Positions 30,620 through 49,988 of a stretch of 57,229 nt of DNA are shown here, one piece after another. Both the position numbers and the translations under genes were made by a program. Numbering within the stretch: the stretch's first letter is position 1; the number at the start of each line of letters is the position of its first letter. The stretch comes from Betaproteobacteria bacterium. GTDB lineage: Bacteria; Pseudomonadota; Gammaproteobacteria; Burkholderiales; SG8-39. The DNA lies in assembly GCA_034668045.1 (NCBI GenBank), contig JAXDQC010000071.1, forward strand, positions 1 through 57,229, read 5' to 3'. The notes beneath the pieces are model-generated. The model ran no database searches. It was not told the origin of the DNA and saw only the letters and a program-made list of their open reading frames with translations.

Positions 30620-31314
<695 letters not shown>

Positions 31315-31318
<4 letters not shown>

Positions 31319-32061
31319 GCGGCGATTCCGCCAAGATACGCGCGGCGCACCTCGGGATGGCGCTGGATCTCCTCCGGCGTCCCCTCGGCGATGAGGCTGC
31401 CGAAGTGCATCACCGAGATGCGGTCGGAGACGCTCATGATGATGTCGATCTTGTGCTCGATCAGGACGATCGTGTAGCGGCCCTTGAGCGAGCGCACCAG
31501 CTGCACCATGCTGCGCGTTTCTTCAGGAGAGAGGCCGGCCGCCGGCTCGTCGAGCAGGAGCACGCGCGGCGCAGCGGCGAGGGCGAGCGCGAGCTCGAGC
31601 TGGCGCTGCTCGCCGTGCGAGATCTCGCGCGCCAAGACATTCGCTTTGTCGATCAAGCCGACGTCGGAGAGTGCTTGCCTCGCCCGCTGTGTGACCTCTT
31701 CGTAGTGAACGGTTTTTCTCCACACCAAACCCTTGCGCGTCCCCGTTGCGAAAGCCGCCGTCCAGACGTTGTCGAGCAGCGAAAACGCTGGAAAGACGTT
31801 GGTGCGCTGGAACGAGCGCGCGAGGCCGAGGTGGGCGATGCGATGCGCCGGCGTGCCGGTGATCTCCCTGCCGTCGAAGACGATTCGTCCCGAGGTCGGC
31901 GGGAACGTCCCGGTCAGCAGGTTGAACAGCGTGGTCTTGCCGGCGCCGTTCGGCCCGATGATCGAATGCAGCGACCCGGCCTCGATGGAGAGGCTCACGC
32001 CGTTCACGGCGGTGAGGGCGCCGAACGCCTTGCTCAGACTCTTTGTTTCGAGAAGCGCCAT
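31315..32061 (-). CDS. Branched-chain-type ABC transporter ATP-binding protein (LivG-like)
   Basis: [38 protein letters not shown]. Confidence 0.93.
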
Positions 32062-32954
32062 AGCTTGTTCCAGGCTTCCACGACTCCGCCGCGCAAGAAC
32101 ATCACCACGATCACGAACGCGAGGCCGAGCAGCAGCGGCCAGCGCGCCCACACGACGCTCATCGACTCGGAGAGCCAGATGAACACGAACGAGCCGATGA
32201 TCGGCCCGTAGAGCGAGCCCGAGCCGCCGATCAGGGTCGCGAACACCACGTTGCCCGAGGTGACGAAGCTGATCGCCTCCAGCGGCACGATGCCGAACAG
32301 CATGGCGTAGAGCACGCCGGCGGCGCCGGAGAAGGCGCCGCCGATGACGAAGGCGAGCAGCTTGAAGCGCGGCACGTTGTAGCCCACCGCTTCGGCGCGC
32401 GTCTCGTTCTCGCGGATCGCCACCAGGATCTTGCCGAGCGGCGATTCGACGATTCTTTTCATGGCGAATAAAAAAACCAGAAATATCGCCGAGACGAAGA
32501 GGTAGTAGTTGAGCGGATTCTTGAAATCCAGCCCGAGGAATTCCGGGCGCGGGATGCCCGGCATGCCGTCCTCGCCGCCGGTGACCGTGGTCCACTGGTA
32601 GGCGACGAAATAGAACAGCTGGTTCAGCGCGAAGGTCAGCATGATGAAGTACAGCCCCGAGCGCTGCACGCACAGGTAGCCGACCAGCAGCGCCGAGAGC
32701 GCTCCGACGACGACGCCAACGCCGAGCGCGGCGAATACGCCGATGGCGAAGTGCTTGAGGAGATAGCCCGCGACATACGCCGCCGAGCCGAAGAAGGTCG
32801 ATTGGCCGAACGAGAGCAGGCCGGTGTAACCGAGCAGCAGATTCAGGCCCAGGCCGAAGATGGCGAAGATCCAGATCTCCGAGGCGATCGCCGGCCGCAC
32901 CACGAACGGCAGCGCCACGACCGCGGCGAGCAGCAGGAGGGTTTCTTTTTTCAC
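32034..32954 (-). CDS. Branched-chain-type ABC transporter permease (LivM-like)
   Basis: NLLLGYTGLLSFGQ, TGGEDG, AIRENETRAEAVG. Confidence 0.93.
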   Translation of the reverse strand: MKKETLLLLAAVVALPFVVRPAIASEIWIFAIFGLGLNLLLGYTGLLSFGQSTFFGSAAYVAGYLLKHFAIGVFAALGVGVVVGALSALLVGYLCVQRSGLYFIMLTFALNQLFYFVAYQWTTVTGGEDGMPGIPRPEFLGLDFKNPLNYYLFVSAIFLVFLFAMKRIVESPLGKILVAIRENETRAEAVGYNVPRFKLLAFVIGGAFSGAAGVLYAMLFGIVPLEAISFVTSGNVVFATLIGGSGSLYGPIIGSFVFIWLSESMSVVWARWPLLLGLAFVIVVMFLRGGVVEAWNKLWRFSKQRV

Positions 32955-33808
32955 CGGATGCCGAACAGTCCCTGTGGGCGCACGAGCAGCACCAGCGCCA
33001 TGACAGCAAAGATCACCGCGGTGGAGGCCTCGGTCCAGTACGCCGCGACCACCGCCTGCGCGACGCCGATGAGCAGGCCCGCGGCGATGGCGCCGAGCAG
33101 GTTGCCCAGCCCGCCGAGCGCGACCACGACGAAGGCGATGCCGAGCATGTCGACGCCCATGCCGGGCGAAAGGCCGCGGATCGGCGCGGTCAGCGCGCCG
33201 GCGATGCCGGCGAGAAAGGCGCCGATGGCGAACGCGATGGTGAACAGCCAGTGGATGTCGATGCCGAGCAGCGACACCATTTCCTTGTTCTCGATGCCGG
33301 CCCGCATGATCGCGCCGTAGCGCGTCTTCTCGAGGAACAGCCAGGTCAGCACCACCAGCAGGCCGGCGAGCAGCATCACGAACAGGCGGTACTTCGGATA
33401 GAAGGTGAAGCCGAGGTCGACGCCGCCGCGCAGGATCGCCGGCGGCAGCTGACTGATGCCCACCGGCCCCCAGAGGACGATGATCATCTCGTTCAGGATC
33501 AGCGCCAGGCCGAAGGTGAACAGGAGCTGGTAGTCGTGCCCCGCCGCGTACAGGCGCCGGATGCCGAGGTACTCGATCGCGAGGCCCAGCAGCGCGACCC
33601 CGAGCGGCGCGACGAGCAGCCCGATCCAGAAGTTGCCGAACAGATTGATCAGCGAAACCAGGAGATAGGCGCCGACGGCGAACAGCGCGCCGTGGGCGAA
33701 GTTCGGGATGTTGAGCACGCCCGTGATGAGCGACAGGCCGAGGCCCATCAGGGCGTACAGCATCCCGGTCGCGATCCCGTTGAGGATCTGGCCGAGCAGC
33801 AGGTTCAA
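32951..33808 (-). CDS. Branched-chain-type ABC transporter permease (LivH-like)
   Basis: NFAHG, KTRYGAIMRA, VVVALGGLG, RPQGLFG. Confidence 0.93.
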   Translation of the reverse strand: MNLLLGQILNGIATGMLYALMGLGLSLITGVLNIPNFAHGALFAVGAYLLVSLINLFGNFWIGLLVAPLGVALLGLAIEYLGIRRLYAAGHDYQLLFTFGLALILNEMIIVLWGPVGISQLPPAILRGGVDLGFTFYPKYRLFVMLLAGLLVVLTWLFLEKTRYGAIMRAGIENKEMVSLLGIDIHWLFTIAFAIGAFLAGIAGALTAPIRGLSPGMGVDMLGIAFVVVALGGLGNLLGAIAAGLLIGVAQAVVAAYWTEASTAVIFAVMALVLLVRPQGLFGIR

Positions 33809-41267: not shown

Positions 41268-42025
41268 ACTGGCACGCGATCTGGGCGATCTACGTCTTCG
41301 AGATGGCGCGCACCGGGCGCACCATCCTGCAGAGCATCGTCGCGCCGGTCATCACCACTTCGCTCTACTTCGTCGTCTTCGGCGCCGCCATCGGCTCCCG
41401 CATCACCGAGATCGAGGGCGTCCCGTACGGCGCCTTCATCGTCCCCGGCCTGGTCATGCTCACGCTCCTCACCCAGAGCGTCACCAACGCCTCTTTCGGC
41501 ATCTACTTCCCGCGCTTCACCGGCACCATCTACGAGCTCCTCTCGGCGCCTATTTCCGCCTTCGAGCTCGTCATCGGCTACGTCGGCGCCGCCGCCACCA
41601 AGTCCGTCATCCTCGGCCTCATCATCCTGGCGACCGCGGGCTTCTTCGTCCCGCTTCGCATCGAGCACCCCCTCTGGATGCTCACCTTCCTCGTCCTCAC
41701 CGCCGTGACCTTCAGCCTCTTCGGCTTCATCATCGGCGTCTGGGCGGACGGCTTCGAGCAGCTCCAGTTCGTCCCGCTCCTCGTCATCACTCCGCTCACC
41801 TTTCTCGGCGGCACCTTCTACTCAGTCAGCATCCTGCCGCCCGTGTGGCAGACCGTCACGCTATTCAACCCCGTGACGTACTTGGTGAGTGGATTCCGCT
41901 GGAGCTTCTACGAGATCGCGGATGTGCACGTCGGGGTCAGTCTGGGGATGACGTCGCTGTTCTTGGTGCTTTGCCTGGTCGCAGTGTGGTGGATCTTCAA
42001 GACCGGCTATCGCCTCAAGACATAA
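41264..42025 (+). CDS. ABC-2 type transporter permease (YadH-like)
   Basis: [49 protein letters not shown]. Confidence 0.92.
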
Positions 42026-42042
42026 ATCTGGGGGCGGCTTCG

Positions 42043-44043
42043 CTAGTGTTGGGCGGTCAGCACCTGACGAAGGCGATCAAATAGGGGGTGGAAGTTGGCA
42101 AGGTCGAAATTCCTAAATGGGGGAGTAGCAGAGGCGACGCGCTCTGCAAACACTGTTTTGGAGTGAGCCACTCGGCTTCCCGCCGCGTCGACGATCGACT
42201 CAGCGTCTTGGTCATAGACCGCTTTGTCAAATTCCTCCGCTTCTACTGGTGCAGCACGTAGTTGAACTTTGACCACCGACGCACCTTTGTGGGTCAGGCT
42301 GGTTTCGATGATCTTTTGGATCTCATTGGAAAAAACCAACCGGTATCCAGTAGCGGGATCAGGCGTTCTCAATTCGCCGTCCGTGTAGTACGACTCTATA
42401 GTGATTTTCTGATATTGCTCTCGCTGTGCCGGCTTGGGAATGCAAAACGAGAGCACATTGTTTCCCCAGTCCCGAAAACCGACTGCGCCATCCTCCATGG
42501 CCTGGACGATACGCGGATCATCTCTATCAAAAATGAATACGACTCGACGCAATTGACGTACCTTCGAAAACTGCTCACACATGCTGCGGAGGGACGCATC
42601 TCCCATGTTGCCGTCCGTGTATTCGTGGAACTCGAAATCAAGATCTAGGTATTCTCCATTCGCACGCAACCTCGTAAGTGCGGATTTCATGTGTTTCCAA
42701 TCAGTGGAGCCCTCCGTAATGACTAAGGGTCGCTGAAGGTTCTTGAGGTGGGCCGTGACGCCATCGTAGGCGTCCTTGAACTGCTGCTCACGTTGAATAA
42801 ATGTGTCGTACGCCTGTCGGAATTCGACGAAGTCTTCAGCGGCAAGAATTTCGCCATGAGGAAGTTCGTAAATGGTGTGTGGGATATCGCCCGCCTGAGA
42901 TAGACCCAATAAGAAAAATGGCGAGTGGGTGGTAACAATGAACTGCACCTTAGGGAACAGTCGAAATAGACTCGGAAGCACTTCTTTCTGGAAACGAATG
43001 TGTAGGTGCAAATCCGCCTCGTCGATCAGGGTAATTCCTGATATGTCGGCAAGTGCCTCGGCGGGTCCGCTATTGAGTTGATCGTGTTCTCTCAGAATCG
43101 TGGCGCCTATGGAGAATGCCATGAGCTCGCCGGACGACAGATGCGAGATGGTTGGTGCAAGTAGTTCCTCCGTAGCCCCGCGTGCGACGAGTATTGATAC
43201 GCGGCGGCCGGCCTTAGAGCTGATGCCAATACGGGCGGCGGTAACCGTCGGATCTTTTGCGCGATAGATGCCGGTCAACAATTGGTTTAAGAGGTCGCGC
43301 GTTGTCGCATTCCGTCCGCGATAGCCGATAAACAGTTGGGCAACCTGAGCGTGCTGTTCAGGCAGGCCGGGAACCGGTATGAGGTGCTTTTCATACAATT
43401 CCATGTCGAGAATTAGATCCAGGATCCAAGACTCGATTCCGCGCACTATGTTTGTCTTGACGATGCTTTCGGTTGATTGCCCGTACATATTGAGCCGCGT
43501 TTCCATGCGCGGCCCAGCCGCTGGATTCAGCCAAGCGGGAGGCTCGTACCTGAAGTAAGGGAAGTACAACGACACTTGCTTTTTTATGGAATCTTGTACC
43601 GTCTTGGGGACGGTGGCGACCTTATGGAAGCCCGATTCTTGGAAATATTGATCGTTGATTTGTAAGTGGGGATACTCTGCGGCCGGGTACTTAGCTTGGA
43701 ATGCCTCGTAAGCACCCTGGCGGACAACTTCAAGCAACTTAGCGACGCCATCGCCTTCGCCGATCTGCACTTCTAGATAGCTATAGTCTTGTCCTGCGCG
43801 TATGTAGTCCTTCTTTTGCAATCGAAAGTATTCGTCCTTCGGTACCTCTGGCAGAACTTGGTAGGCCTGTCGTTTAGCTTCAATGAGGCTTTCAAGAATT
43901 CCAGACAATACGAGCGACTTCCCAGCGCCGTTCTGTCCAACGAGGACTACGAGCTTTGGCCGCCCACCGTCGTCCAGTGAGAGATCGATAGCGAAACGAT
44001 GAATTGGGCCGTAGTTTTCGAAGACTATTTTCTTGACGTACAT
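42043..44043 (-). CDS. ABC/AAA_21-type ATPase fused to a TOPRIM nuclease domain (OLD-like; candidate defence protein)
   Basis: Walker A GQNGAGKS, signature LSSGE, Walker B LIDEADLHLH, switch FIVTTHSP; TOPRIM ITEGSTD, IFDRD, IESYY, SKTVFA; visibly lower GC than the flanks; GGAGG SD. Confidence 0.85.
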   Translation of the reverse strand: MYVKKIVFENYGPIHRFAIDLSLDDGGRPKLVVLVGQNGAGKSLVLSGILESLIEAKRQAYQVLPEVPKDEYFRLQKKDYIRAGQDYSYLEVQIGEGDGVAKLLEVVRQGAYEAFQAKYPAAEYPHLQINDQYFQESGFHKVATVPKTVQDSIKKQVSLYFPYFRYEPPAWLNPAAGPRMETRLNMYGQSTESIVKTNIVRGIESWILDLILDMELYEKHLIPVPGLPEQHAQVAQLFIGYRGRNATTRDLLNQLLTGIYRAKDPTVTAARIGISSKAGRRVSILVARGATEELLAPTISHLSSGELMAFSIGATILREHDQLNSGPAEALADISGITLIDEADLHLHIRFQKEVLPSLFRLFPKVQFIVTTHSPFFLLGLSQAGDIPHTIYELPHGEILAAEDFVEFRQAYDTFIQREQQFKDAYDGVTAHLKNLQRPLVITEGSTDWKHMKSALTRLRANGEYLDLDFEFHEYTDGNMGDASLRSMCEQFSKVRQLRRVVFIFDRDDPRIVQAMEDGAVGFRDWGNNVLSFCIPKPAQREQYQKITIESYYTDGELRTPDPATGYRLVFSNEIQKIIETSLTHKGASVVKVQLRAAPVEAEEFDKAVYDQDAESIVDAAGSRVAHSKTVFAERVASATPPFRNFDLANFHPLFDRLRQVLTAQH

Positions 44044-44174
44044 TCCTCCCCCTTGCTACACGACACTAAGATAAAACTGAGACTTGCCGCCCTCTGATGT
44101 CTATCATCAATTATGAGCACACAACGCGATATACGGCACGCGGCTCTATCACTAGACCATCGAAGTGACGCAGC

Positions 44175-45590
44175 ATGAGCCATGTGAACAGATCACACGA
44201 CTTACGCTCTGCAGCTCCGTTCTGGGCGCTTCGGGTCCATGACGAGACGCACAGACTGCTTGCGGTTCGACAAGACACGCCGGAACCGCCGAACCAAACC
44301 ACCGACCGCGGCGCGATGCTGACTGCGATTGTCGACGGCGGCTACGGCTACTGCGCGACCAGCGATCTGAGCCAAGCCGGACTTCAAGCGGCGCTGGATC
44401 GGGCGACGGAATGGGCGGAGGCGACGAAGGGGAAGAGCGTCTTCAAGTTCGATCCGGAGCGGATGCCGGCGCCGAAAGGCGAGTACGAGAGTCCGTTCCT
44501 GATGGAGCGGCCGAAGAATGCCGAGATCCGCGATCTGCTGATGGCGGAGTGCAAGGCGGCGAAGGTCGACGAGAGGATCGTGGAGCGAACGGCGTCGCTG
44601 TCGATCGTGGACGAGGAGCGGTTGTACTTCACGAATACCGGCGGCGAGCTGAGGCAGCGCTTCCGCTACACGGTGCCGCACGCGCGCATGACGGCGAATG
44701 CGGGGGTGGAGACGCAATCGAGGAGCCTGGAGCACGCGCAGCAGGGAGGCTGGGAGCAGCTCGAGCGCGCGGGGTTCAAGGGCTGCGGCGAGAGGCTGGC
44801 GCGGGAGGCGCTGGCGCTGCTCGAGGCGCCGAACTGTCCGTCGGGAAAGATGGACGTGCTGCTGATGCCCGACCAGATGATGCTGCAGATCCATGAGTCC
44901 ATCGGGCACCCGTTGGAACTGGACCGGATTCTGGGAGACGAAAGAAATTACGCCGGCACGAGCTTCGTGCGGCAGGAGATGTTCGGCGAGTACCAGTACG
45001 GCTCGAAGCTCTTGAACGTGACGTTCGATCCGACGCGGCAGGAGGAGTTCGCCTCGTTCGGGTTCGACGACGAAGGAACGAAGGCGGAGAAGGTCTGGTT
45101 GATCAAGGACGGAATCCTCGTGGCGCCGCTCGGCGGCACGCTGTCGCAGCTGCGCACCGGGATGAGGGGCACGGCGAATTCGCGCGCCTGCGCCTGGAAC
45201 CGCGCGCCGATCGACCGGATGGCGAACCTGAACGTCGAGCCGGGCGAGAGCAGGCTCGAGGACATGGTGAAGTCGATCAAGCGCGGGGTGTTGATGCGCA
45301 CCAACGTCTCGTGGTCGATCGACGACTCGCGCAACAAGTTCCAGTTCGGCTGCGAGTGGGGCGAGCTGATCGAGGACGGGCGCGTCACCGGCGTGGTGAA
45401 GAACCCGAACTACCGCGGCGTGTCGGCGAATTTCTGGCGCAGCCTGCGCATGGTGGGCAACGACGACACCTTCGAGGTGCTCGGCACGCCCACCTGCGGC
45501 AAGGGCGAGCCGAACCAGGCGGTCCACGTCGGCCATGCAGCGCCGGCGTGCCTGTTCGCCGATGTCGAGGTGTTCGGCGGCGACCAGTAG
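44175..45590 (+). CDS. tldD: TldD metalloprotease
   Basis: QIHESIGHPLELDRILGDERNYAGTSF (HExxxH), FDDEG, PIDRMANL, CGKGEPNQ. Confidence 0.9.
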   Translation: MSHVNRSHDLRSAAPFWALRVHDETHRLLAVRQDTPEPPNQTTDRGAMLTAIVDGGYGYCATSDLSQAGLQAALDRATEWAEATKGKSVFKFDPERMPAPKGEYESPFLMERPKNAEIRDLLMAECKAAKVDERIVERTASLSIVDEERLYFTNTGGELRQRFRYTVPHARMTANAGVETQSRSLEHAQQGGWEQLERAGFKGCGERLAREALALLEAPNCPSGKMDVLLMPDQMMLQIHESIGHPLELDRILGDERNYAGTSFVRQEMFGEYQYGSKLLNVTFDPTRQEEFASFGFDDEGTKAEKVWLIKDGILVAPLGGTLSQLRTGMRGTANSRACAWNRAPIDRMANLNVEPGESRLEDMVKSIKRGVLMRTNVSWSIDDSRNKFQFGCEWGELIEDGRVTGVVKNPNYRGVSANFWRSLRMVGNDDTFEVLGTPTCGKGEPNQAVHVGHAAPACLFADVEVFGGDQ

Positions 45591-48686: not shown

Positions 48687-49988
48687 TTGAAGGACCAGTT
48701 CTTCGCCACGGCGGATCGGCTGGCGCGCGGCCTGCGCGCGGGCGAGACCCTGCTTTGCACCCTCTCCGCCGAGCGCTCCGACTTCGTCCGCTTCAACCAC
48801 GCGCGCGTGCGGCAGGCGGGAAGCGTCGCGCAGGCCTATCTCGACCTGCGGCTGATCCGCGACCGCCGCCAGGCGACCGCGACCGTGACGCTCGACGGCG
48901 AGGGGCAGGAGGATGCGTTGCGCGCCCTGCGCGATTCGCTCGAGGGCCTGCCCGAGGATCCCTGGCTGCTCGTCAACGAGGCGCCGCGCTCGAGCGAGAG
49001 CGTGCGGCGGGGCGCCTTGCTCCCGTCCCGGGAGATCGCGGACGTCGCGGTCGAAAAATCCGGCAACCTGGATTTCGTCGGCATCTACGCCGGCGGCACG
49101 CTGATGCGCGGCTTCGCCAACTCGCTCGGCCAGAAGAACTGGCACGAGCTCGACAGCTTCAACTTCGACTTCAGCGTGCACGGCGAGGGCGACCGGGCGG
49201 TGAAGTCGGGCTATGCCGGCTTCGAGTGGGACGGAAAAGTCTTTGCGCAGAAGATCCTTTCCGCCGGCGAAGAGATGAAGGTGCTTGCAAAAGCGAAGAA
49301 GCAGATCGTTCCCGGCGAATACCGCGCCTACCTGGCGCCGCGGGCGATGAGCGAGATCACCTCGCTCCTCAACTGGGGTGCCTTCTCGGCGCGGGAGCAG
49401 AAGACCCGCCAGAGCCCGCTGCTGCGCATGCAGGCGGGCGAGCGCCTCTCGCCGAAGCTGACCCTGCGCGAGAACACCGCCGAGGGAATGGCGCCCGGCT
49501 TCCAGGGCCACGGCTTCCTCAAGCCCGACCAGGTCGTGCTGATCGAGAAGGGCGCGTTGAAGGACCCGCTGGTGTCGCCGCGCTCGGCGAAGGAATACGG
49601 GCTGCAGACCAACGGCGCGGGCGGGCCGGAGATGGCCTCGTCGCTCGACATGCAGGCAGGGTCCCTGGAAGAAAAGGACGTCCTGAAAGCGCTCGATACG
49701 GGCCTGTACGTCTCCAACCTCTGGTACCTGAACTTCTCCGACCGGCCCGCCGGCCGCATCACCGGCATGACGCGCTTCGCCACTTTCTGGGTCGAGGATG
49801 GGCGTATCGCCGCGCCGGCGGGCGTGATGCGCTTCGACGATTCGATCTACCGCATGCTCGGCGAGAACCTCGTCGAGCTGACGCGGGGGCGCGAGCTCCT
49901 GCCCGACCCCGCCACCTACGGCGAGCGCTCGCGCGGCAGCGAGCGCCTGCCCGGCGCGCTGCTGAAGGCGCTGCGCTTCACTCTCTGA
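48687..49988 (+). CDS. tldE: TldE/PmbA family protein
   Basis: SDFVRFNHARVRQAG, PGEYRAYLAP, NLWYLN, TGMTRFATFWVEDG, MRFDDS; no HExxxH. Confidence 0.85.
   Translation: MKDQFFATADRLARGLRAGETLLCTLSAERSDFVRFNHARVRQAGSVAQAYLDLRLIRDRRQATATVTLDGEGQEDALRALRDSLEGLPEDPWLLVNEAPRSSESVRRGALLPSREIADVAVEKSGNLDFVGIYAGGTLMRGFANSLGQKNWHELDSFNFDFSVHGEGDRAVKSGYAGFEWDGKVFAQKILSAGEEMKVLAKAKKQIVPGEYRAYLAPRAMSEITSLLNWGAFSAREQKTRQSPLLRMQAGERLSPKLTLRENTAEGMAPGFQGHGFLKPDQVVLIEKGALKDPLVSPRSAKEYGLQTNGAGGPEMASSLDMQAGSLEEKDVLKALDTGLYVSNLWYLNFSDRPAGRITGMTRFATFWVEDGRIAAPAGVMRFDDSIYRMLGENLVELTRGRELLPDPATYGERSRGSERLPGALLKALRFTL

Follow-up and report, generated by a model that had tools for sequence, protein, structure and literature searches.

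A candidate single-gene anti-phage protein that joins a PtuA-type ATPase to an Eco2-type TOPRIM domain

The pairing of an ABC ATPase with a TOPRIM domain is a recognised theme and among the commonest architectures in bacterial immunity, with OLD, Gabija, PARIS, retron Eco8 and HEC-04 as its characterised examples. P2 Old has been reported to act in vivo as an abortive tRNase under the control of its ABC domain (PMC12445682; bioRxiv 2026.07.10.737580), and PARIS is described as a TOPRIM system that cuts tRNA. Two related lineages have been studied only inside other systems. PtuA is known from Septu and the type I-A retrons; in Septu, the PtuAB complex reportedly requires the Walker motifs of PtuA and cuts tRNA-Tyr within its variable loop (PMC13096335). 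The Eco2 TOPRIM is known from a retron, and is reported to be an RNase caged by multicopy single-stranded DNA (msDNA) that, once freed, nicks tRNAs in their acceptor stems and brings translation to a halt (PMC12916289). Here we describe a gene that unites these two lineages, at positions 42043..44043 (minus strand) of contig JAXDQC010000071.1 from a Betaproteobacteria bacterium (assembly GCA_034668045.1); the whole stretch analysed, 57,229 nucleotides in length, is referred to as the window. The gene product (P0001), of 666 amino acids plus a stop codon as delimited by the open reading frame (ORF) and by full-length homologues, is in our reading, which we hold with moderate confidence, a horizontally acquired, stand-alone anti-phage abortive-infection nuclease in which a PtuA-type ATPase acts as the switch for an Eco2-type TOPRIM.

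Domain composition and relation to described systems

Residues 1-400 of the protein (42844..44043, minus strand, as are all features of the gene) are assigned to the PtuA clade of ABC ATPases by PADLOC, by a PDB profile search and by Foldseek. The PADLOC matches were to PtuA (E 1.3e-29) and to the retron family ATPase_I-A (E 1.6e-24). A sequence search of the PDB with a profile built from 30 family members returned PtuA from retron Ec83 (E 6.5e-29), from retron Ec78 (E 2e-25) and from Septu (8ee4; E 2.4e-21, residues 1-377 against 1-360), with weaker matches to AriA (E 1.4e-11), retron Ec67 (E 2.2e-5) and TsOLD (E 1e-3, in the Walker B region only). Foldseek with an AlphaFold2 (AF2) model of the whole protein (pLDDT 87.1) found PtuA chains at E about 1e-15 (Septu about 1e-14). 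Judged by sequence comparison and modelled fold, the ATPase is of the PtuA type, rather than the OLD, GajA or AriA type. Pfam places AAA_15 and AAA_21 in the N-terminal part and no credible family in residues 400-666. The NCBIfam PtuA model scores 84 bits, which falls below its equivalog cut-off of 500, so the protein is not a PtuA equivalog.

Per-segment conservation divides the ATPase region into two head halves (residues 1-60 and 296-400) that enclose a variable insert (61-295). In an alignment of 30 sequences, N38, G39, G41 and K42 of the Walker A motif GQNGAGKS (43915..43938) are invariant, as are S303 and G305 of the ABC signature LSSGE (43126..43140). In the Walker B and D-loop stretch LIDEADLHLH (43000..43029) E342 is invariant and D341 is conserved in at least 90% of sequences; in the H-loop QFIVTTHSP (42919..42945) Q367, S374 and P375 are invariant and H373 reaches at least 90%. 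A two-copy complex prediction for residues 1-400 scored 0.01 (mark 0.42) and weighs neither way on a homodimer. Between the ATPase and the TOPRIM lies a linker helix (residues 401-435; 42739..42843), which is helical at 406-435 in the AF2 model.

The remaining residues, 436-666 (42046..42738), were assigned by PADLOC, Foldseek, VIA and hidden Markov model (HMM) alignment to a TOPRIM of the Eco2 (retron I-C) type with a C-terminal helical part. The PADLOC family RT-Toprim_I-C, which models a fusion of reverse transcriptase (RT) and TOPRIM, matched the whole protein at E 1.4e-28 (residues 408-663 against model positions 300-526 of 529) and the C-terminal 265 amino acids alone at E 1.7e-29. Eight PADLOC families matched these 265 residues: six models of RT-Toprim_I-C, with PDLC02965 and PDLC02968 at E 1e-29 and the others at E about 1e-5, and two models of RT-TIR_XII. 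None of the OLD, GajA, AriB and HEC models of PADLOC matched the C-terminal domain at E<=1, and no TOPRIM-type Pfam family matched the protein at the same threshold. A separate model of residues 400-666 (pLDDT 89.7; predicted template modelling score 0.87) gave five Foldseek matches at E<=1e-3, all of them chains of retron Eco2, with E values down to 5.7e-6 (264 columns). Other TOPRIM folds, namely T7 primase, AriB and RNase M5, followed at no better than E 0.04-0.15 (AriB 0.045). VIA, which is independent of Foldseek, gave Z scores of 11.7 for Eco2 (199 residues aligned), 7.6 for BpOLD, 6.9 for AriB, 6.4 for TsOLD, 5.6 for GajA and 5.4 for Eco8. On these sequence and model comparisons the C-terminal domain is an Ec67/Eco2-type TOPRIM.

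The active site can be read against that of Eco2, in which E374, D378, D460, D462, S513 and E515 are attributed to metals A and B (PMC12405507), and in which mutation of the metal-site residues is reported to abolish both RNase activity and defence (PMC12916289). All six have counterparts in the HMM alignment: E444 and D448 of motif IV, TEGSTD (42700..42717), pair with E374 and D378; D506 and D508 of motif V, FDRD (42520..42531), with D460 and D462; and T548 and E550 of the TIE motif (42394..42402) with S513 and E515 (metal B). E444, D448, D506 and E550 are invariant in 30 family members, and D508 and K629 are conserved in at least 90%; with this degree of conservation the motifs are not chance occurrences. 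K629, together with the conserved F632, belongs to the segment SKTVFA (42145..42162) defined from the family and HMM alignments, and aligns with an Eco2 lysine whose number is other than 562; it may yet be the equivalent of the catalytic lysine called K562 in PMC12405507. The arrangement EGxxD...DxD has been described as the signature of the I-C TOPRIM, a separate and presumably new lineage of the superfamily (Mestre et al. 2020, PMC7736814). The two RT-TIR_XII models that match this TOPRIM (PDLC02961 and PDLC02962; E 6e-8 to 3e-13, at window positions 42046-42840 and in the homologue loci L034-L046) do so at model positions expected to be the TIR part; either the domain fused in type XII is related to this TOPRIM, or these models include I-C-like sequences.

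Consideration of the described systems in turn shows where the protein resembles them and where it departs from them. Its ATPase is of the same clade as PtuA of Septu and the type I-A retrons (Ec78/Eco7 and Ec83), which gave the top matches in searches with PADLOC, NCBIfam, PDB sequences and Foldseek, and the end-to-end match to Septu PtuA includes the Walker A, signature, IDExDLHLH and THSP motifs; however, the PtuB HNH partner and RT of those systems are absent here, as msDNA appears to be, and the nuclease is instead a covalently fused TOPRIM. That TOPRIM is of the same lineage as the Eco2 domain, with EGxxD and DxD and with an alignable C-terminal helical part and F..iFd tail, but the RT of Eco2 has no counterpart, and its non-coding RNA/msDNA cage and trimeric nucleoprotein have no apparent one, so that regulation would have to come from the ATPase. 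RVT_1 was found neither in the protein nor in the 88.9%-complete genome. Class 1 OLD (P2 Old and Thermus scotoductus OLD) has the same architecture, a single gene for an ABC ATPase and a TOPRIM, and relatives of the protein occupy the P2 locus where old lies; yet both of its domains appear to be of other lineages, with no OLD model on the C-terminal domain, TsOLD at E 1e-3 in the profile search, and TOPRIM folds at Z 6.4-7.6 against 11.7 for Eco2.

The gene has no GajB-type helicase neighbour as in Gabija, GajA was outside the best 25 PADLOC families, and the GajA fold scored Z 5.6. PARIS is alike in that an ABC ATPase serves as sensor and a TOPRIM tRNase as effector, and it is reported to exist in fused form too (PMC9122126); however, AriA matched less well than PtuA (E 1.4e-11 against 6.5e-29), DUF4435/AriB gave no match at E<=1, and the AriB fold match was weak. 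HEC-04 is reported as a validated single-gene ABC ATPase-TOPRIM protein that is embedded in other defence systems and whose protection needs the Walker A lysine and the TOPRIM E/D/D residues (Payne et al., bioRxiv 2024.01.29.577857). These are K62 and E319/D375/D377, and the HEC-04 TOPRIM is compared with BpOLD; it appears distinct from the present protein by this description rather than by sequence, and the different spacing of these residues makes its ATPase part about 145 residues shorter. PrrC and RloC are likewise described as ABC-type ATPases fused to a tRNase, with PrrC tied to type I restriction (bioRxiv 2024.01.29.577857, bioRxiv 2026.07.10.737580), but their nuclease is reported as HEPN-type, not TOPRIM (bioRxiv 2026.07.10.737580), with no sequence kinship beyond the ABC fold. 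Adjacency to hsdR in 3 of 18 homologue loci recalls PrrC, but the copy in the window has no restriction system alongside.

The protein is not a member of Septu, retron I-C, Gabija or PARIS, and by analogy we infer that it works like the ABC-TOPRIM defences of the OLD, PARIS and HEC-04 type. The sole library family that matches over its full length is phrog_8323 of the PHROGs collection (E 2.4e-38 in two stretches, in the best of which residues 298-663 pair with 286-621 of the 623 profile positions), but its function is unknown and it names nothing. No full-length named system was present in PADLOC v2.0.0, NCBIfam or Pfam, and a non-exhaustive search, outside bioRxiv supplements and current DefenseFinder models, found no published description of a fusion of a PtuA-type ATPase with an Eco2-type TOPRIM. 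These results uphold a preliminary description of the gene, which had recognised complete ATPase and TOPRIM motifs, had likened the two halves to PtuA and to the Ec67 TOPRIM, and had suspected that neither RT, HNH nor helicase accompanies them; none of the three is in the protein or beside the gene. The full-length match to a described system that would have removed its novelty was sought, and phrog_8323 alone was found.

Distribution of the family and genomic context of its members

A word-indexed search found 334 relatives, of which the full-length ones are 630-710 amino acids long and the closest is 66% identical, and an exhaustive one returned 499 clusters, formed at 50% identity, that score E<=1e-30; a length of 600-715 amino acids was recorded for 119 of the 150 listed clusters. 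The family has members in Pseudomonadota, Bacteroidota, Bacillota, Verrucomicrobiota, Margulisbacteria and a Gracilibacteria metagenome-assembled genome, and the named sources include Azospirillum, Pseudomonas, Pontibacter, Oceanimonas, Parageobacillus, Alicyclobacillus, Enterobacter, Sphingobacterium and Megamonas. Among the matches listed, most are called 'AAA family ATPase' and a few 'predicted ATPase', 'ATP-binding protein' or 'hypothetical protein'; the ESM Atlas clusters are automatically named 'AAA family ATPase' only. Mean identity to the query is highest in the two ATPase head halves (0.44 and 0.49) and the TOPRIM core (0.43), and lower in the insert 61-295 (0.28), the linker helix (0.27) and the C-terminal part of the TOPRIM (0.28). 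The ATPase-TOPRIM fusion is a fixed and widespread family.

On mobile elements, the predicted viral contigs of IMG/VR hold 109 relatives, 10 of them full-length; a phage collection gave one 47% fragment only, and plasmids gave seven distant matches (27-35% identity). A sister family of 610-670 amino acids (L027, L030, L031, L032, L044 and L093; one member in the window's order) has the same PtuA-like ATPase and a far more divergent TOPRIM-like C-terminus, with motifs VEGxxD, YDCD and GIENLF. Two copies of the fusion are read as more than one ORF. That of a Selenomonadaceae genome (L028:10001-11986) lies in pieces of 89, 324 and 187 amino acids, between a helicase fragment and genes for a type III methylase and a BrxP-like protein, and looks to be decaying in a defence island. 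Under translation table 11 the Gracilibacteria copy (L019:9983-12004) falls into two ORFs, 329 and 330 amino acids long; since this lineage reassigns TGA, it may be a whole gene.

Defence genes are common around the homologues. A genome scan found 554 relatives, from which 80 loci were kept; 18 loci with a full-length match were analysed by searching ORFs within 7 kb against PADLOC at E<=1e-5. A PADLOC match was obtained for 54 of 142 neighbouring ORFs (53 of 141 without the gene fragment in L028), and 16 of the 18 loci have at least one such neighbour; the other two are a short contig and the Gracilibacteria contig, with its poor table-11 ORF calls. The same procedure applied to the window as a control matched 3 of 46 ORFs, all of them generic proteins, namely two ABC-transporter ATPases and one response regulator (Fisher p = 1.7e-5, for loci that are not independent). 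This is the association with defence islands that the preliminary description had looked to for its proposed role. The two window ATPases (30623-33009, minus strand) belong to ABC_tran, of the branched-chain amino-acid type, and match mad3, AriA and mad8 at E 1e-9 to 1e-28; the defence models therefore cross-match housekeeping ABC ATPases.

In 3 of the 18 loci, from unrelated genomes, the gene is the last of a complete type I restriction operon, directly after hsdR on the same strand (L013:6600-12004, L021:6744-11926 and L022:104-5325, with gaps of 90, 36 and 9 nt). Elsewhere its neighbours include restriction genes of types II and IV, IetAS, a helicase that resembles GajB, RmrA, AbiH, BrxP and the PADLOC candidates PDC-S05, S13, S19 and S27. 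No conserved partner, antitoxin-like genes included, was found within 4 kb across the 18 loci; the only neighbour clusters common to loci at this distance are hsdR-like (four loci) and PDC-S05 (two loci). Nine full-length viral loci from IMG/VR were scanned with PHROGs. In three of them (L094-L096) the gene has a replication nickase of gpA type on one side and the genes for the portal and the large terminase on the other, and in two more it is beside an Abi protein and an integrase. The interval between gpA and gpQ is described as the defence hotspot of P2, which in P2 itself holds old and tin (Rousset et al., PMC9122126; PMC13586616), and the neighbourhoods occupied by the family thus include the P2 old/tin hotspot. 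E. coli genomes gave no DNA match to the hotspot homologue L094.

The TOPRIM itself recurs in other fusions. The family TOPRIM profile gave whole-domain matches (E 1e-54 to 1e-68) in differently fused proteins: bona fide retron I-C RT-TOPRIM proteins (L037 and L041), the N-termini of three STAND NTPases (L035, L036 and L039), two ABC ATPases of AriA/mad3-like type (L038 and L040), and two proteins whose N-terminal parts match nothing identified (L043 and L046). In a tree of 27 TOPRIM sequences the ABC-fused copies do not form one group; RT- and STAND-fused TOPRIMs nest among them with support of 87/90, and well-supported branches force at least two changes, in a tree whose backbone is weak and which has a midpoint root only. 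The STAND NTPases (L035:9938-12667, L036:2004-5483 and L039:9590-13444) carry NB-ARC/NACHT, one with TPR repeats, and their TOPRIMs match PADLOC RT-Toprim_I-C at E 1e-24 to 1e-32, at model positions about 320-527 only; their sequences suggest Avs-like sensors equipped with a TOPRIM as effector. An Eco2-type TOPRIM also occurs alone, as a free protein of 234 amino acids (L034:86-787, E 1.5e-25) that belongs to the same set of whole-domain profile matches.

The gene and its surroundings in the window

The gene is an intact ORF that starts with ATG. The frame stays open for four more codons upstream (670 amino acids in all), but the N-terminus of the 666-residue product matches column 1 of 29 homologues in the alignment, and a purine-rich, Shine-Dalgarno-like run abuts the ATG in the 131-bp upstream intergenic region (44044..44174, minus strand). 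Guanine-plus-cytosine (GC) content is 0.521 in the gene against 0.668 in the remainder of the window, and at third codon positions 0.58 against 0.83-0.96 in five neighbouring genes; among 2-kb slices of the window the gene is the minimum at 0.518 (mean 0.662, sd 0.03; 57 kb). Both adjacent genes are housekeeping genes on the plus strand. To the left are an ABC transporter ATPase and then an ABC-2 permease that ends at 42025; to the right are a PmbA/TldD peptidase gene from 44175 and then an ABC substrate-binding protein.

Homology to congeners breaks off at 42018-42027 in nine loci and restarts at 44202 in the single locus that includes the right flank, which delimits a foreign segment of about 2174 bp with this gene alone. 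The segment (42028..44201, GC 0.522) has no congener counterpart and comprises the gene, 17 bp past its stop and its 5' region; it contains no partner gene. None of the 60 congeners gave a match (protein query, E<=1e-20; 26 of the 61 searched genomes, G000 included, are at least 90% complete). Elsewhere in the order, 200 genomes yielded two matches, one full-length at 32% identity and the other of the sister type. The foreign composition and the rarity in genus and order together indicate a recent horizontal acquisition. No direct or inverted repeats were found flanking the segment, and the 43 window ORFs scanned contain no integrase, transposase or recombinase family, in a search that did not extend to DDE transposases genome-wide; the genome has four Phage_integrase matches, three of them above the family cut-off and on other contigs. 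No Rfam match rose above noise in 41500-44700, a library that may not model retron msr/msd RNA. The preliminary description had reported a 666-residue frame of lower GC on the strand opposite to its neighbours, with neither a partner nor a mobility gene, and each of these points holds.

Independent Logan contigs bridge the left junction (X1, 41720-44056, no differences) and the right junction (X2, 43856-44490, one difference), so the placement of the gene is not an assembly chimera. They derive from soil metagenomes sequenced in two runs that belong to two studies; one of these runs may be the source sample, and two soil DNA metagenomes are the only runs that contain the stretch. A 'skips 4536' joint in X2 was discarded as a cross-match, with a side of 20 letters and 27 foreign letters between the sides. 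The ABC operon and a TldD-like gene are present in congeners but arranged otherwise: in G001 the operon lies between sequences resembling the window at 49.7k and 51.2k, and in G010 part of the operon, in inverted orientation, adjoins the TldD-like gene where the contig ends. Because the congeners hold the flanking genes in other arrangements, no clean empty site is definable. The window itself has two PmbA/TldD paralogues, at 44175-45590 and 48687-49988.

Proposed function and alternative explanations

We propose that the ATPase (residues 1-400) would serve as both sensor and conformational switch, joined by the long helix to a two-metal TOPRIM nuclease (436-666), and that it would replace the regulatory role of the msDNA cage in Eco2 and of the coupling to the PtuB HNH nuclease in Septu. 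At rest the ATPase, probably oligomeric, would hold the TOPRIM site shut, with its conserved heads predicted to bind and hydrolyse ATP. The variable insert (61-295) may then sense a phage cue, upon which a shift in nucleotide state or assembly would set the TOPRIM free to cleave RNA, most likely tRNAs, and translation would halt before the phage cycle ends. By analogy with the systems described above, the protein most likely functions as an autoinhibited RNase of abortive infection, with tRNA as the probable target and the ATPase as its gate. Computation shows the domain identities, the intact and conserved catalytic residues, the constant single-gene make-up of the family, the foreign origin of the gene and the placement of homologues in defence hotspots; we infer that the protein protects, what triggers it, how it oligomerises and that its substrate is RNA.

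A number of observations weigh against this proposal. The identity to Eco2 is low, at 12-18% in structural alignments, with an HMM E value of 9e-7, and the evidence on the family is computational for every member. The control for the neighbourhood analysis is a single high-GC window that includes some wrong-strand ORFs, and PADLOC models cross-match generic ATPases and methylases. In its own genome the gene lies outside any defence island, among transporters and a peptidase; a scan of the 131-bp upstream region for the sigma-70 consensus, the only promoter consensus covered, found none; and the listed holders of the stretch include no RNA run. Nor is the RNA substrate secure, as the TOPRIMs of class 1 and 2 OLD and of GajA are reported to cut DNA in vitro (PMC10568477). 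The same stand-alone defence might therefore act by nicking or degrading phage or plasmid DNA, an alternative that we consider unlikely but worth retaining. It would suit the architecture, which equals that of class 1 OLD, and the folds that follow Eco2 in the structural comparison (BpOLD, AriB, TsOLD and GajA), and the OLD of retron Eco8 is reported to cleave double-stranded DNA; however, the nearest relative by both sequence and fold is Eco2, a demonstrated RNase, and P2 Old itself is reported to act on tRNA in vivo (PMC12445682; bioRxiv 2026.07.10.737580).

The remaining explanations question the role in defence rather than the substrate. The gene could be a selfish addiction or toxin module, or a phage 'moron' used in competition between phages, and so a recent passenger of little benefit to its host. 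The Pfam description of AAA_21 as a putative AbiEii toxin domain, the carriage of relatives on predicted viral contigs and a few plasmids, and an acquisition recent enough for the composition to be unameliorated, with no copy found in the 60 congeners, all fit this idea; we nonetheless judge it improbable, as there is no conserved antitoxin-like partner, and it overlaps with the defence reading because the cargo of prophage hotspots is reported to be largely defensive (PMC9122126; PMC13586616). More improbable still is an intact-looking insert that is silent or decaying and has no function in this organism. The missing promoter consensus, the missing RNA run and the isolation of the gene from islands would agree with this, but the 2-kb frame is open, all catalytic motifs are intact, and a Shine-Dalgarno-like site is present upstream, where the scan was limited to sigma-70. 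Finally, ABC ATPase-nuclease pairs work in DNA repair too, and with housekeeping genes as immediate neighbours a role in repair or RNA maturation might be imagined. This last explanation is close to refuted: searches found the gene in none of the 60 other congeners and gave no match in 198 of the 200 genomes of the order, its composition is foreign, and its homologues are found in restriction-modification operons and prophage hotspots.

Beyond the abortive-infection role that we favour for this gene, we tentatively suggest, with rather less than even confidence, that it is the founding example of a widespread and so far unnamed single-gene immune system, in which an Eco2-type TOPRIM tRNase is gated by a PtuA-type ATPase instead of by msDNA. 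If this is true, the TOPRIM would be a portable 'translation kill-switch' cassette that has been captured repeatedly by different sensors, as the RT-fused, STAND-fused and free forms illustrate, and two modules of the type I retrons, namely the ATPase of I-A and the nuclease of I-C, would exist in recombined form without any retron. The copies adjacent to hsdR may, by analogy with PrrC, guard restriction systems against anti-restriction. Should the protein prove protective, it would represent a compact, one-gene defence of 2 kb with a broad phyletic range, and a retron-free handle on how an Eco2-type tRNase is switched on. It would also offer a natural experiment, in which a single effector is controlled by msDNA, by a STAND NTPase or by an ABC ATPase, sensors that are unrelated to one another, and would account for cargo that lacks annotation, both at the P2 old/tin hotspot and within type I restriction operons.

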